Source: Candidatus Moraniibacteriota bacterium
GTDB taxonomy: Bacteria > Patescibacteriota > Minisyncoccia > Moranbacterales > UBA1568
NCBI GenBank assembly: GCA_013334575.1
Contig: JAAXXG010000002.1
Span: 69,377 to 133,376, forward strand
Length of the DNA: 64,000 nt
Reading direction: 5' to 3'
A program made the translations under genes and the position numbers. The notes beneath the pieces were generated by a model. That model did no database searches and had not been told where the DNA came from. It saw nothing but the letters and a program-made list of their open reading frames with translations. Below, piece by piece: positions 6,663-53,927 of this stretch (its first letter is position 1; each line of letters starts with the position of its first letter).

Positions 6663-6857
6663 AAATTCTGATATCGCAAATACTGCCCAAGAAATAACAG
6701 GACAATCTTAACGAACAAGATAAATATTTTAGCATTATTTATAATTTTAGTCAATTACTTGCACATTCATAGAAAAATCAGGGCTTGTACAAGCCCTGAT
6801 TTTTCAGAAAGCGCATTTCGGAAAAATTGCCGCTGTACACCAACCGACAACAATCAT

Positions 6858-30713: not shown

Positions 30714-31406
30714 CTATCGCAACAGGTTCCGGTTCACGTTCTCCGGAACCGAATAGAAGACCGGTTTGAAACTCATGCGGTGAATCGGACACGCCCCGAG
30801 ACGACGCAGGGCGTCCATATGCTCCTTGGTCCCGTATCCCTTGTGTTTCGCGAACCCGTACGCCGGATAGAGCGCGTCGTATTCGAGCATCATCCGGTCG
30901 CGTGTCACCTTGGCGACGATCGACGCGGCCGCGATCGACCGTACGCTCGCGTCCCCTCCGACGACCGTCTCCTGCCGCACCGAGAGATTCGGAATCATCT
31001 GATTCCCGTCGACCAGAAGCAGAAGGTCGTCCGTCGCAAGACCGGTTTCCTCCGCTTTCCGCCGAAAGTCGGACAAGGCCTCCTTCATGGCGAGGAACGT
31101 CGCCTCCAGGATATTCATCCGGTCGATCGTCTCGGCGGAAACGATTCCGACCCCCACCACGAAACGGTCCCGTACGAAAGCGAGCGCCTTCTCACGCTGC
31201 TTCTCGGAGAGTTTCTTCGAATCCCGGACGAGTTTCCATTCCTTTTCCGTTTCCGTATCGATCGGAGCGAAGTCCTGTTTCCTGAACGCGGCGACCGCCG
31301 CCACGACCGGCCCGGCCAACGGCCCGCGCCCAGCCTCGTCGATCCCGACGATACAGGTCGCTCCGTCACGCCGTCGACTCCGTTCAAACTCGAATACGCT
31401 TTCCAT
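30714..31406 (-). CDS. rnhB: ribonuclease HII
   Basis: IVGIDEAGRGPLAGPVV catalytic motif. Start MESVFEF at rc ATG 31404-31406. Confidence 0.85.
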   Translation of the reverse strand: MESVFEFERSRRRDGATCIVGIDEAGRGPLAGPVVAAVAAFRKQDFAPIDTETEKEWKLVRDSKKLSEKQREKALAFVRDRFVVGVGIVSAETIDRMNILEATFLAMKEALSDFRRKAEETGLATDDLLLLVDGNQMIPNLSVRQETVVGGDASVRSIAAASIVAKVTRDRMMLEYDALYPAYGFAKHKGYGTKEHMDALRRLGACPIHRMSFKPVFYSVPENVNRNLLR

Positions 31407-31460
31407 ACAGGGAAGATACGATTTCTCACATTCTACCGTCACCAGTTTCCGAATGCGATA

Positions 31461-31489
31461 TTGACATAGTTATTACAATATTTTATAAC
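31461..31489 (+). promoter_or_regulatory. candidate sigma70-type promoter
   Basis: TTGACA-17 nt-TATAAC upstream of 31536..32207. Confidence 0.35.
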
Positions 31490-31535
31490 AGGAATTCACT
31501 CTTTCCCAATCTTTCCCAACCAAAATCATCCGACC

Positions 31536-32207
31536 ATGCCGTTCAAAGAATACCTTATTGACCGGTCACTGCTCCCGGAGCCGTATTCCACGGCACAAAA
31601 AGCGGAAACGTACGATTGCATCGTTCCGCAGGCGTACAGCAGAAACGGCTACCCGAATTCGGCGCTCCACGAGATCCACTGCGAGAGGGTCGAGCACGGA
31701 TCCGATATCGCCATGTTCCAGTGGTTGCAAGAACAAGCCTTCGAACCCGGCCAGCCAAACCGGTTCATCTCGGAGTCCTGTTATCAGGCAGCGGAGCTCC
31801 TCGGCCGGCACGTTCCGGTCATCGGGCAGTGGGAGGTCATGTTCGCCCTCTGGAAAGCGTATCCGCAATGGTACGAGTCCAATACGGACGCTCTGGTCGC
31901 CATCTGGCCGGCGGAATGCGGCAGGCAAAATACCTACGAGCTTCTCCTGGAGGCGAGGGAGGTCTGCAAGACACGAAACGTATCCGTGCCGCTCATCCCC
32001 GCCGCACCGCAGCATACGCCAAGGACGTTCTTCCTCGCGAAGAAGATCTTCGGCACCTCGCCGGCGGTCGTAAAACGGTATCCGGATGAAGATCCGAATC
32101 ATTGGTACGACCCCAAATCGGTCCAATGGCAGACCCGATCGGAGAGGCTCTGGCTCCTCTACGAGTCACTCTCCCGGATCCACCATCACCTGTTCGGATG
32201 GCTCTGA
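31536..32207 (+). CDS. hypothetical protein
   Basis: 223-aa Trp-rich ORF with no recognisable motifs. Followed by a terminator. Confidence 0.4.
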   Translation: MPFKEYLIDRSLLPEPYSTAQKAETYDCIVPQAYSRNGYPNSALHEIHCERVEHGSDIAMFQWLQEQAFEPGQPNRFISESCYQAAELLGRHVPVIGQWEVMFALWKAYPQWYESNTDALVAIWPAECGRQNTYELLLEAREVCKTRNVSVPLIPAAPQHTPRTFFLAKKIFGTSPAVVKRYPDEDPNHWYDPKSVQWQTRSERLWLLYESLSRIHHHLFGWL

Positions 32208-36123: not shown

Positions 36124-37050
36124 ATGGAAACGATCGTCGTGGTCGGACCGACCGCGTCGGGAAAATCCGACTATGCCATCTCGCTCGCGCGCGAGACCGG
36201 CGGAGAGATCGTCTCCGCCGATTCGCGGCAGGTCTACCGCGGGATGAATATCGGCACCGGGAAGGTTCCCAGAGATACGTTCAATGTAGAGACGGGGCAT
36301 ACCCCGTCTCTACGGAATGACATTTCGTATATCTCCGGCGGTATCCGGCATCACCTTCTCGACGTCGCCTCGCCGAAACGGACCTATACCGTCACGCATT
36401 TCCTCCGTGATGCCAGGGCGGCGATCGACGACATACGGAAACGCGGCAAAACGCCCATCATCTGCGGCGGGACGAACTTCTGGATAGAGGCGCTCGTCTC
36501 CGATACCTCGTTTCCCGCGGTCAGACCCGATCCGCCCCTCCGAAAAACGCTCGGCCGACTCACCGCGCCCGAACTCTTCACGATGCTCGAGGAAAAGGAC
36601 CCCGACCGCGCGAAGACGATCGACCGTCACAATAAGGTCCGGCTCATCCGGGCACTCGAGATCGTCGCGACGCTCGGTAAAGTACCGACAAGCGGAACAA
36701 GGACTCAAGAATCAGGAATGAAGCGGGATGAGAAATTCCGATTCATCGGAGTCGATATCTCACGAGAACAGTTACGTGAAAATATCGTGAGACGACTCGA
36801 TAAGCGGCTCCGGGAAGGGATGGTCGACGAAGTACGACGGCTCCGCGAGGAAGAAGGAATCTCCTGGAAGCGCCTCGAGGGATTTGGACTCGAGTACCGC
36901 TGGTGCGCGCTGTTCCTTCAAGGAAAGATAACGGAAACGGAACTGCGCGACGGTATCACCCGCGACAGCCTCTCCTACGCCAAGCGGCAAATGACGTTTC
37001 TTCGGAAACTGGAACGAAACGGGATACGGATAGAATGGAGGAGAATTTGA
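36124..37050 (+). CDS. miaA: tRNA dimethylallyltransferase
   Basis: P-loop GPTASGKS, DSRQVYRGMNIGTGK and HHLLD motifs. Contains a 28-nt palindromic element in-frame at 36286-36313. Confidence 0.85.
   Translation: METIVVVGPTASGKSDYAISLARETGGEIVSADSRQVYRGMNIGTGKVPRDTFNVETGHTPSLRNDISYISGGIRHHLLDVASPKRTYTVTHFLRDARAAIDDIRKRGKTPIICGGTNFWIEALVSDTSFPAVRPDPPLRKTLGRLTAPELFTMLEEKDPDRAKTIDRHNKVRLIRALEIVATLGKVPTSGTRTQESGMKRDEKFRFIGVDISREQLRENIVRRLDKRLREGMVDEVRRLREEEGISWKRLEGFGLEYRWCALFLQGKITETELRDGITRDSLSYAKRQMTFLRKLERNGIRIEWRRI
36286..36313. repeat. perfect 28-nt palindromic element (REP-like), copy 1, inside the miaA coding sequence
   Basis: gtagagacggggcataccccgtctctac is translated in frame as VETGHTPSL. 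Confidence 0.75.
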
Positions 37051-37063
37051 AATATCGAATTGG

Positions 37064-37100
37064 ACAGTAAAGACGCCTCAGTGGGGCGTCTTTTATGTTT
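37064..37100. terminator. bidirectional terminator / REP-like hairpin between miaA and the RAYT gene
   Basis: aagacgcc tcagtgg ggcgtctt stem followed by TTTATGTTTGATTT. The stem core gacgcc/ggcgtc resembles copy 3 of the palindromic element. Confidence 0.5.
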
Positions 37101-37632
37101 GATTTATCGGATTCTCCTCATCCGTATCCCATTCCCGAGGATTGATACGGATATATTCCTGGATCAACCGTAGAGACTCCTCGTTCCGGATAATATGATC
37201 ATGGAATCGCGATTGCCATGAGAATCCGGATTCGGCATGCGACGCCCGGATTCTTTTCGTACAAACAGATTTGAACGACCCGACAATCGTCGCCAAAGTC
37301 GGTCGTTTTCGTGGTTCACTGTTTTCCGTAGAGACGGGGCATGCCCCGTCTCTACACGGAAGGATCTCGATGATTCCGTGAACATGATTCGGCATTACAA
37401 CAAATTCATCCGTTCGGATATCTCGAAAATGGTCCGGGATACTACCCCAGCAATCCCGGACGATTTCCCCGATTCCGGATAATGTCATCTCCCCGTTTTC
37501 GATATCGCCGAACCAGAGACACCGATCCGCGGCACAGATGGTCACGAAATATGCGCCAGGTTGGGAATAATCATATCCGGGTAAGCGTGATGATCGAATC
37601 CTGTATTTGCCTTTGTAGTTATCCGCTACCAT
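37093..37632 (-). CDS. REP-associated tyrosine transposase (RAYT, IS200/Y1 family)
   Basis: YRIRSSRLPGYDYSQPGAYFVTICAADR; HuH motif VVMPNHVHGIIEI; C-terminal WQSRFHDHIIRNEESLRLIQEYIRINPREW. Flanked by REP-like hairpins. Confidence 0.75.
   Translation of the reverse strand: MVADNYKGKYRIRSSRLPGYDYSQPGAYFVTICAADRCLWFGDIENGEMTLSGIGEIVRDCWGSIPDHFRDIRTDEFVVMPNHVHGIIEILPCRDGACPVSTENSEPRKRPTLATIVGSFKSVCTKRIRASHAESGFSWQSRFHDHIIRNEESLRLIQEYIRINPREWDTDEENPINQT
37327..37354. repeat. 28-nt palindromic element, copy 2, inside the RAYT coding sequence
   Basis: gtagagacggggcatgccccgtctctac, read on the minus strand as CRDGACPVST. Confidence 0.75.
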
Positions 37633-37667
37633 AAACGTACATACATCATATCCGATTCCCTATAACG

Positions 37668-37696
37668 GTAGAGACGCCCCGGCGGGGCGTCTCTAC
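37668..37696. repeat. palindromic element, variant copy 3, upstream of the RAYT gene
   Basis: gtagagacgcccc ggc ggggcgtctctac has the same outer arms with an inverted inner core. Confidence 0.7.
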
Positions 37697-37818: not shown

Positions 37819-39300
37819 CTACGCCTCCAGTCTTTTCCGGAGTATCTCGGAAACCACCTGCGGATTCGCTTTTCCTTTGGTTTCCTTCATCACCTGGCCG
37901 ATGAGGAACTGAAACGCGTTCTGCTTTCCGGCATGGTAATCCTCGACAGACTTCGCGTTCGCGGCAAGAATCGCGTCGACGATGCCTTCGAGCTCCCCCG
38001 TGTCGCTCACCTGCGCGAGATTGAGCCGGTCGATGATATGCGACGGATCGTTATCCTCGCCCTTGAGCATCTCACCGAGGACCGTCTGAGCTGCGCTCGA
38101 ATTGATTTTTCCATCGGCAATTATCACGATGAATTCCGCATAGTTCTCGGGAGTGATTCCCGACTCACTGATGGTTTTTCCGGATTCGACCAGTCGTTTT
38201 CGCAATTCGGTCACGATATAGTTCGCGGCGAGCCGGATCGCCTTCTCCTCCCCGGCGACCAACTCCTTGGAATCTTTCTTTTCTCCGATCTCGCTCACGA
38301 CCGCTTCGAAATAATCCGCGGTCGGCTTCTCGGCGGTGATCACCGAGACCGCTTCAGACGACAGTCCGTATTGCTTCGCAAACCGTTCTTCCTTGGCTGC
38401 CGGCAGTTCGGGAATGGTCAGACGGAGCGCCTCGATGTCCGCTTCCGAAAATGAGAAAGGCGGGATGTCCGGCTCGGGGAAATAGCGGTAATCGTGCGCA
38501 GACTCCTTCTTGCGCTGCGAAACGGTTTTCTGTCCGTTCTCGTCCCATCCGCGCGTCTCCTGTTCGATCTTCTCGCCCGATTCGAGCGCCTTCGTCTGTC
38601 GGGCGATCTCGTATTCGATCGCCCCGGCAACCGCCTTGAACGAGTTGAGGTTCTTCACCTCGACCTTGGTACCGGACAGCCGGTCCTCACCTTCCGCATA
38701 CAGCGAGATATTCGCCTCGCAGCGCATCTGTCCCTTTTCCATGTCCGCGTCCGAAATGTCGAGATACCGGAGGATCTGCCGAAGCTTCTGGCAGAAGAGC
38801 CGCGCGTCGGCGGCGTTGTCGATATCCGGCTCGGTCACGAGTTCCATGAGCGGCACCCCCGAACGGTTCAGGTCGACCAGGGTATGTTTGGTACCGGCGG
38901 GATGATACAGCTTGCCGGTGTCCTCCTCCATGTGGATCCGGGTGATGCCGACCGTCTTGCCCTCGCGGATCGTGAGCGCCCCCTTCCCGCAGAACGGTTC
39001 GTCGTACTGCGAGATCTGGTAGCCTTTCGGAAGATCGGGATAGAAATAGTTCTTGCGGTCGAACTTCGAGTGCCTGGCGAGTTCGCAGCCGAGCGCGAGT
39101 CCGGCCCGCTGCACCGATTCGATTGCCAGCCGGTTCGGAGTCGGAAGCGCTCCGGGCTGTGCGGTACAGACCGGGCAGATGTGTACGTTCGGTTCGGCCT
39201 CCTGTCCGAGACCGTTCCTGCACGAGCAGAACATCTTGGACTCGGTCCGAAGCTCGACATGGACCTCCATACCGATGACGGGAGTGTATTTCATAATCAT
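37819..39300 (-). CDS. gatB: Asp-tRNA(Asn)/Glu-tRNA(Gln) amidotransferase subunit B
   Basis: MIMKYTPVIGMEVHVEL N-terminus and C-terminal GatB/YqeY tail. The upstream ORF extension is Arg-rich read-through. Confidence 0.9.
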   Translation of the reverse strand: MIMKYTPVIGMEVHVELRTESKMFCSCRNGLGQEAEPNVHICPVCTAQPGALPTPNRLAIESVQRAGLALGCELARHSKFDRKNYFYPDLPKGYQISQYDEPFCGKGALTIREGKTVGITRIHMEEDTGKLYHPAGTKHTLVDLNRSGVPLMELVTEPDIDNAADARLFCQKLRQILRYLDISDADMEKGQMRCEANISLYAEGEDRLSGTKVEVKNLNSFKAVAGAIEYEIARQTKALESGEKIEQETRGWDENGQKTVSQRKKESAHDYRYFPEPDIPPFSFSEADIEALRLTIPELPAAKEERFAKQYGLSSEAVSVITAEKPTADYFEAVVSEIGEKKDSKELVAGEEKAIRLAANYIVTELRKRLVESGKTISESGITPENYAEFIVIIADGKINSSAAQTVLGEMLKGEDNDPSHIIDRLNLAQVSDTGELEGIVDAILAANAKSVEDYHAGKQNAFQFLIGQVMKETKGKANPQVVSEILRKRLEA

Positions 39301-43914: not shown

Positions 43915-44015
43915 GACGACAGCGGGAAGGTTTTTTCGTTTCAAGCCCCTCCTTTCCGATTTCATCAAAAAAATGAGGCTCATATAAGCCTCATTATTTG
44001 ATCGTTTCGGATTTC
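43915..44015. repeat. intergenic repeat element A (about 100 nt, terminator-containing)
   Basis: Near-identical to B at 44677..44774. Contains a hairpin aatgaggctcatataagcctcatt with an A-run before and a T-rich run after, acting as a bidirectional terminator. Confidence 0.7.
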
Positions 44016-44676: not shown

Positions 44677-44774
44677 ACGACGGGGAGGTTTTTTCGTTTC
44701 AAACCCCTCCTTTCCGATTTCATCAAAAAAATGAGGCTCATATAAGCCTCATTATTTGATCGTTTCGGATTTCG
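44677..44774. repeat. intergenic repeat element B
   Basis: Same element as A, with an additional upstream stem cctccccg ... cggggagg followed by TTTTTT. Confidence 0.7.
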
Positions 44775-53703: not shown

Positions 53704-53927
53704 AGGAGTCTTCGGTTATGGGGATCTGCCGACTCCCTCCGGCACCCATTGTACGGGAAAGGCCGATAAAAAGGAACCTTGGCAGAATTCCATCCCCGTG
53801 TCATCCCGAGCGCAGTCGAGGGATCCACGGATATATCAGGACCAGAGTCGATTCTCCTGGCAGATTCCTCCACTCGAAGACTCTCCGGCATTCGCCGGAC
53901 TCCGGGTCGGAATGACAAGACAAAAAA

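Follow-up and report, generated by a model that had tools for sequence, protein, structure and literature searches.

Some copies of the GTAG-type repetitive extragenic palindromes (REPs) lie wholly inside open reading frames (ORFs) of known proteins, where they are translated and have been proposed to fall in loops or linkers (Di Nocera, De Gregorio and Rocco 2013, PMC3733652), and TnpA_REP has been described to cut REPs in single-stranded DNA, with GTAG as the guide, where CT or CA lies a few nucleotides away from the stem, and to carry out strand transfer (PMC8266576). Here, we analyzed a 64-kb stretch of DNA (64,000 nt, hereafter the window) from a Moranbacteria genome of the Candidate Phyla Radiation (CPR, or Patescibacteria), in which a 28-nt hairpin lies in-frame inside miaA, the gene for tRNA dimethylallyltransferase, close to a gene for a REP-associated tyrosine transposase (RAYT). 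We consider it quite probable that this hairpin is a REP carried in-frame, as a passenger, by a permissive loop of the MiaA protein, beside its own REPtron (i.e., the RAYT gene together with its REPs), and as such it is a CPR and MiaA instance of the intragenic GTAG REPs, a category already on record (PMC3733652).

The likeness to those intragenic GTAG REPs (PMC3733652) lies in a short GC-rich stem-loop that starts with GTAG and is associated with a RAYT in a REPtron. The differences are the CPR host, which belongs to a phylum outside that survey, the pairing of GTAG with a terminal CTAC, which yields a symmetric 28-nt palindrome, and the setting, with few copies in the 64-kb window and an older element whose place the copy took in a loop that is a recurrent hotspot. 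Described REPtrons (Nunvar 2010, PMC2817692; Ton-Hoang/Corneloup 2021, PMC8266576; Bertels 2017, PMC5581495) likewise contain a single syntenic Y1 HuH gene with GTAG hairpins adjoining, whereas the one described here also holds a REP copy within the RAYT coding sequence, right past the HuH motif. Finally, the MITEs (miniature inverted-repeat transposable elements) that occur in-frame in bacterial genes (reviewed in PMC10969869) resemble an older element of the miaA loop, with its 12-nt terminal inverted repeats (TIRs), its long hairpin fold, and an intergenic copy in the window; this likeness concerns the predecessor element and not the 28-nt REP.

The original prediction, made from the letters of this stretch, had compared the miaA palindrome to the palindromic elements of Rickettsia. 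These Rickettsia palindromic elements (RPEs), which PMC3733652 mentions as well, are selfish palindromic DNA that, as Ogata and colleagues reportedly found in 2000, lies in-frame in genes and is tolerated as a surface peptide. RPE-1 is ~100–150 bp long, short RPEs are tagged with CGTC, and we know of no dedicated RAYT that serves them. The comparison holds for position, as the miaA hairpin also lies in-frame in an ORF and in a surface loop that is absent from solved MiaA structures and modeled at a predicted local distance difference test (pLDDT) score <50. It does not extend to kinship: the element in miaA is 28 nt long, GTAG-tagged, hosted by Moranbacteria, and without sequence relation to RPEs, and hence an analog rather than a member of that family.

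A GTAG-type REP inside the miaA reading frame

The miaA 28-mer, GTAGAGACGGGGCATACCCCGTCTCTAC, is laid out as GTAGAGACGGGG-CATA-CCCCGTCTCTAC, i.e., a 12-bp perfect stem closed by a 4-nt loop, and its 5′ GTAG pairs with the terminal CTAC. It is read in-frame, as originally proposed, as V55-E-T-G-H-T-P-S-L63, within an ORF that matches the PF01715 family at 192.5 bits. The description as a “perfect 28-nt palindrome” stands for the hairpin and not for its perfection, since the CATA loop leaves the reverse complement off at two positions. The palindrome can be read through in two of its three frames, and the third holds a TAG from the GTAG head; the miaA copy uses frame a, and frame b would run into the TAG stop. 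None of 100 shuffled sequences matched the 28-mer, while the window holds two copies at ≤1 mismatch, and the number of copies expected by chance is zero. The hairpin folds at −22.5 kcal/mol as RNA (z −7.75 vs shuffles), at −30.5 kcal/mol as RNA in its 60-nt context, and at about −13.8 kcal/mol as single-stranded DNA on either strand (z −8.0 vs shuffles). It is not terminator-like, as it lacks a T-tract, and an Rfam scan found no family at gathering score and sub-threshold noise only.

Beyond the window, contigs of GTDB genomes were searched for the exact stem with any 2–6-nt loop, and the matches listed represent a lower bound. The exact stem was present in at least 118 stretches, with hosts among the matches listed including Bacteroidales, Ignavibacteriales, Acidobacteriaceae, gammaproteobacterial metagenome-assembled genomes, Chloroflexota, Parcubacteria, and Buchananbacteria, and several genomes with at least 3–6 contigs bearing the 28-nt hairpin. 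These yielded at least 127 occurrences (5 in RAYT-like ORFs, 3 adjoining one, and 119 outside). The flanks of the dispersed copies were unrelated, save a T bias at position −1, and because flanks are not conserved among copies the 28-nt hairpin itself is the repeat unit, as for a GTAG-type REP. Of the features of that class, a short GC-rich stem-loop (20–40 nt), a 5′ GTAG, dispersal with unrelated flanks in other genomes, and RAYT association are present; where the class has numerous scattered copies per genome, mostly outside genes, the 64 kb hold three, clustered in 1.4 kb. The miaA 28-mer is one more GTAG-type REP, a mobile palindrome of small size that forms a hairpin, and its initial designation as REP-like is borne out by its dispersal in many genomes and by the adjoining RAYT.

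The miaA copy is not the only one that is translated. Several copies elsewhere lie deep within long ORFs and are read in-frame as VETGHAPSL, with Pfam support for host genes encoding PheT, a Ser/Thr kinase, valyl-tRNA synthetase (in a Parcubacteria genome), a SpoIIE phosphatase, a DNA methylase, and a sugar kinase. Two Ignavibacteria-type Ser/Thr kinases (L009, 475–502; L085, 1530–1557) carry VETGHAPSL at the same position of the kinase domain, where the peptide adds no length to the Pfam alignment; in these kinases, the REP seems to replace sequence rather than adding to it, as in miaA. A literature search with the sequence string returned unrelated primer matches only, and nothing relevant was found in the literature on CPR and in-frame palindromic repeats.

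The variable loop of MiaA and its older occupant

The host protein is an intact enzyme by all measures available here. It is 100% identical to a Candidatus Moranbacteria MiaA, contains the P-loop GPTASGKS, the DSRQVYRGMxIGTxK and HHLLD motifs, and the invariant columns, and its AlphaFold2 model (mean pLDDT 83.9) superposes on the E. coli MiaA–tRNA structures 2ZM5 and 3FOZ with template modeling scores of 0.74–0.79; its matches in the PDB were 2QGN, 3D3Q, and 2ZM5. The segment from GTGK to HHLLD, originally estimated as about 17 residues longer than in E. coli or B. subtilis, is 28 aa here vs 10 aa in the solved MiaA structures, and the HMMER alignment with these is interrupted by an 18-aa gap at residues 52–69. 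Residues 48–66 of the model have pLDDT <50 and no secondary structure, while the rest is confident, and the REP peptide is thus predicted to lie at the surface, in a disordered loop with no counterpart in canonical MiaA.

Comparison with 120 orthologs separates the REP from the extension that contains it. The REP occurs in one of the 120, the window's own miaA, and is absent even from the closest relative, L001 (GCA_013336155.1), whereas the extension itself is clade-wide: the stretch between GTGK and HHLLD is 17–80 aa long (minimal form VPRDPLPANFFYSEGIR), with a 17-aa base form in the Moranbacteria-type clade and mostly the canonical 10-aa segment in more distant Patescibacteria. An 18-aa extension arising from the REP alone was ruled out by this clade-wide base and the variable loop upon it, as the REP contributes 9 aa. 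Hence, an ortholog alignment, which had been proposed as a check, finds the REP specific to the window and the lengthening not, and the extensions that relatives carry at the same site differ from it in sequence.

Inside the protein, the orthologs differ in length at two places only, i.e., in this loop (4–67 variable residues, sd 11.2) and in another disordered one at residues 193–203 (the second loop). Translated palindromic elements occur in both loops of various orthologs (e.g., HPELVEGS...STRRLARND and LCHPGLDPGS...RLRGNDN), and orthologs also carry IPLSPPFRKGE in the second. When 26 expanded loops were compared with equal-length windows of the same gene, 7 were far more hairpin-prone (z −4 to −5.8) and about half were not hairpin-prone; the loop of the window scored z −4.1 and the L001 insert z −5.3. 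Tolerance of insertions is a better fit to this pattern than a conserved role in structure, and the Moranbacteria-type MiaA loop is a permissive landing pad in which different palindromic or low-complexity elements reside by lineage. As a separate observation, many loop inserts (MiaA orthologs P0026–P0050 and others) consist of 7-residue periodic peptides such as YKIQDTR, KSKIKNQ, and TTDNSQL, the last with inverted LSVVSG; judged from the peptides only, these periods may be the expected translation of 7-nt tandem repeats.

What stood in the loop before the REP can be read from L001, which has the same RAYT and hairpins and a 95-nt element in its miaA loop. This element has TIRs GTCATCCCGAGC...GCTCGGAATGAC and is common to the next relatives (including L200), and the MITE-like copies in L001 miaA, in L200 miaA, and in an intergenic region of the window (Table 1) align at both ends. 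The window has 46 nt in place of 106 nt of L001, which brings the loop down from 48 to 28 aa; the sequence immediately to the right of the replaced tract is identical in the two genomes, and the left junction (VPRDT) resembles an L201-type allele. By this alignment, the REP took the place of most of the older 95-nt MITE-like element and left its right terminus behind. A simple insertion of the REP was ruled out by the same comparison. The view first put forward, of a palindromic element in-frame in a surface loop, is supported and essentially right, with two refinements: a replacement took place instead of a simple insertion, and the REP makes up only 9 of the 18 extra aa.

The miaA allele as a whole has a history of its own. 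Window and L001 are near-identical across most of 13 kb and identical in the RAYT region; 200-nt windows mostly show 0–1 differences, with a few strongly divergent patches that reach 10–30%. The divergent patches are at 30714–31900, 36243–36909, 37906–38500, and 39104–39300, and include part of gatB. This mosaic divergence suggests frequent homologous recombination between strains, and since the miaA body is one such patch, the REP-bearing loop belongs to a distinct allele that was probably exchanged by homologous recombination. We had entertained a recent event in situ in an otherwise identical genome, and this view has been softened, as the whole miaA body is divergent and probably recombined.

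Table 1. Coordinates of features in the window (position 1 is its first letter)
Feature	Coordinates	Strand	Details
miaA, intact 308-aa tRNA dimethylallyltransferase	36124..37050	+	Pfam IPPT (PF01715), 192.5 bits
Divergent miaA tract vs L001	36243..36909	+	~8% nucleotide differences; near-identical DNA on both sides
Hypervariable loop of MiaA, GTGK to HHLLD, residues 48-75	36265..36348	+	residues 48-66 pLDDT <50
Unalignable 46-nt stretch vs L001	36267..36312	+	L001 has 106 nt; replaced tract
Type-A GTAG REP hairpin in miaA	36286..36313	.	12-bp stem, CATA loop, codes V55-L63 (VETGHTPSL)
Right-TIR remnant of MITE-like element	36313..36321	+	CGGAATGAC, peptide RND; from alignment with L001
Second variable low-confidence MiaA loop, residues 192-201	36697..36726	+	pLDDT, ortholog alignment
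Terminator-like hairpin between convergent miaA and RAYT	37064..37098	.	GTAaAGACGCC...GGCGTCTtT
RAYT, REP-associated Y1 HuH tyrosine transposase, 179 aa	37093..37632	-	HuH = H83-V-H85; Y160 aligned with Y115 of E. coli TnpA_REP
Perfect 28-nt type-A REP in RAYT ORF	37328..37355	.	CATG loop, read RDGACPVST, 9-18 residues past HuH
Type-B GTAG REP	37668..37696	.	GTAGAGACGCCCCGGCGGGGCGTCTCTAC; 14-bp stem, 1-nt loop, 36 nt upstream of RAYT start codon
Intergenic 117-nt MITE-like copy	53800..53916	+	TIRs GTCATCCCGAGC / (GC)TCGGAATGAC

The REPtron beside miaA

The RAYT ORF matched Pfam Y1_Tnp marginally (23.8 bits, cut-off 23), and its homologs carry the JGI name RayT. Within a WQxRFxxHxIRN...YIxINP block, its Y160 aligns with Y115 of E. 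coli TnpA_REP (4ER8), reportedly identified as the catalytic tyrosine by Messing (2012). With the HuH and Tyr catalytic residues retained, the RAYT appears to be intact. The gene order dnaE-miaA-RAYT-gatB is common to the window, L001, L200, L201, and L202, and its recurrence in these relatives indicates that the RAYT has long resided at this locus, apparently as a single syntenic gene inherited vertically. Among the metagenome MiaA loci checked, which are distant, none had an adjoining RAYT. In two relatives, 23S_rRNA_IVP (PF05635) genes adjoin gatB (L200, 4350–4586; L201, 8772–9095), and gene calling in the equivalent part of L001 gave none with this domain.

The RAYT gene is accompanied by two types of hairpin, type A with a GGGGCATGCCCC core and type B with a GCCCCGNCGGGGC core. 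The 64 kb contain three related hairpin copies, all within 1.4 kb, and the GTAGAGAC 8-mers of the window all fall within 36286–37696; the fourth of these 8-mers, at 37170–37177, is a partnerless half-site in the 3′ part of the RAYT ORF. The type-A copy inside the RAYT ORF differs from the miaA copy by 1 nt (CATG vs CATA loop) and is the truly perfect palindrome of the two, so that the claim of the same palindrome in the RAYT gene 1 kb away holds for near-identity and fails for identity. Between the convergent miaA and RAYT genes, the hairpin at 37064–37098 resembles by eye a degenerate type-B REP and looks, in its part at 37069–37093, like the miaA terminator. Together, the RAYT gene and its REPs form a REPtron, with type A in the ORF, type B just upstream, and the degenerate hairpin downstream.

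The position of a REP within the RAYT ORF recurs well beyond this genome. Each of the five syntenic genomes has a GTAG hairpin in the RAYT ORF just past the HuH motif, mostly with another upstream; a more distant RAYT homolog (L204) contains an internal GTAGGGGCGACGCATGCGTCGCCCCTAC, and another distant one (L205) has identical palindromes upstream of and within the RAYT ORF. The in-ORF palindrome was thereby verified at the DNA level in seven loci (window, L001, L200, L201, L202, L204, and L205). By a back-translation test, in which a protein had to be able to encode a GTAG...CTAC palindrome with a stem of ≥10 bp, 97 of 120 RAYT homologs, drawn from several phyla, can encode one 9–27 residues past the HuH, and the same test on MiaA orthologs gave one real case, the window's own protein. 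The frame in which the palindrome is translated varies from one RAYT homolog to another (VETGHALSL, CRDGACPVST), which indicates that the DNA is conserved and not the peptide. In addition, close RAYT orthologs have types A and B traded between the site in the ORF and the one upstream (L200, 2421/2741; L201, 6752/7099; L202, 5336; window, 37328/37668), implying hairpin swapping at fixed sites. No description of a REP within the RAYT ORF past the HuH was found in the RAYT and REPtron literature examined; this architecture is apparently undescribed so far and is the most interesting by-product of the analysis.

Further palindromes were noted elsewhere in the window. Two identical 32-nt AT-rich hairpins (AAAAAATGAGGCTCAT/ATAAGCCTCATTATTT) lie at 43968–43999 and 44726–44757, 758 nt apart, and a perfect 34-nt palindrome (GAAAAATCAGGGCTTGT/ACAAGCCCTGATTTTTC) lies at 6772–6805; these are probably terminators or another small repeat family. 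The MITE-like element at 53800–53916 is followed by a terminator-like hairpin.

Routes to the miaA copy and its rivals

For the route by which the REP reached miaA, our preference is a transposase-mediated one, which we hold tentatively and with less assurance than the identity of the element. The hairpin would extrude in single-stranded DNA, and the RAYT would either cleave and transfer it or nick the DNA, with repair templated on a REP copy. The donor would most likely be the RAYT-internal copy 1 kb away, the resulting miaA allele would then have spread between strains via homologous recombination, and the nine residues would persist in MiaA as a tolerated, presumably neutral passenger. The flanks of the miaA copy speak to the donor: compared with the inverted RAYT-internal copy, 9 of 16 anchored positions match, against a maximum of 8 among 126 unrelated REP copies, with GAGAT and TTC..T shared on the left and GGAA on the right. 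This flank score is an anchored ungapped count, and a semi-global alignment score did not discriminate orientation. Such likeness points to the RAYT-internal donor in a way that is suggestive rather than conclusive.

Several points weigh against an in-frame passenger copied from the adjoining REPtron. Its GTAG is base-paired in the stem, whereas classical REPs have GTAG as an unpaired tag, and no copy lies outside the 1.4-kb locus in 64 kb, so that the element lacks the behavior of a high-copy REP here. Among the matches listed from GTDB genomes there were no Moranbacteria, and the REP-bearing miaA is known from one assembly (1 member, 1 contig). The REP sits in a ~670-nt divergent tract, and hence the original insertion may date to another strain. 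As for the donor, the flank likeness is modest (9/16), its right GGAA could come from the older element, and the loops of the two copies differ (CATA in miaA vs CATG in the RAYT copy).

The main rival is transposase-free copying, i.e., template switching or gene conversion with the old miaA MITE hairpin and the RAYT-internal REP as partners, which we regard as possible though rather unlikely. It would account well for a replacement at a site that already held a strong hairpin (the L001 insert, scored above against same-gene windows), and an inverted copy sharing some flank bases fits templated copying with microhomology. Two further facts tell in the same direction: RAYT orthologs swap type A for type B at one and the same place in the ORF, and the REP peptide does not lengthen the L009 and L085 kinase domains. 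The weak flank identity, with no long common tract, does not, nor do the unrelated flanks of REPs in other genomes, which look as expected from an excised unit of hairpin size, and no intermediate was seen among the sequences compared.

We consider it improbable that the stem-loop is kept for a function in the miaA mRNA or DNA, such as translational pausing, mRNA stability, or a site for RAYT or another protein that couples miaA to the REPtron. The great stability of the stem would suit such a role, as would the seven hairpin-prone expanded loops, including those of the window and L001, which share the propensity despite unrelated sequences. Yet about half of the expanded loops lack it, many orthologs have the minimal 17-aa loop or the canonical 10-aa segment and no hairpin, and the second disordered loop sees the same element traffic, as tolerance predicts; the missing T-tract and the empty Rfam result argue likewise.

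Even less probable is that the protein gains an adaptive trait from the 9-residue peptide or from the whole variable loop, e.g., a diversifying surface. Though the extreme variability in length and sequence at this one site is what diversification might produce, the same peptide appears in unrelated proteins purely owing to the DNA element, RAYT homologs use different frames of the palindrome, and the loop is predicted to be disordered.

That the miaA palindrome is an assembly or sequencing artefact seeded by the near-identical palindrome 1 kb away, as palindromes can seed mis-joins and the copy comes from a single assembly, is hardly credible, as the ORF keeps its frame and colinearity to either side, the copy comes with a CATA loop and flanks of its own and so is no duplicate of the RAYT copy, and the surrounding ~670-nt allele is consistently divergent, as a real allele would be.

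Taken further, the in-frame passenger beside its REPtron invites a broader and more speculative picture, which we offer as doubtful at present: the in-ORF REP may be a heritable master or donor and the miaA hairpin a fresh copy-out of it, in a stretch of genome without other dispersed copies, in which case a REP newly arising from a self-contained REPtron would be caught at this locus, and CPR elements may repeatedly remodel permissive loops of essential enzymes.

For CPR biology, the locus means that small CPR genomes harbor active REP/RAYT systems and MITE-like palindromes, which rewrite loops of core translation-related enzymes without destroying them, and natural variation among the orthologs maps two sites in MiaA where insertions are tolerated. 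For annotation, VETGHAPSL, RDGACPVST, HPELVEGS, and STRRLARND in conserved proteins are translated repeat DNA and not protein motifs. For the REP family, a REP embedded in the RAYT ORF could explain the long-term matching of REPs with domesticated transposases.

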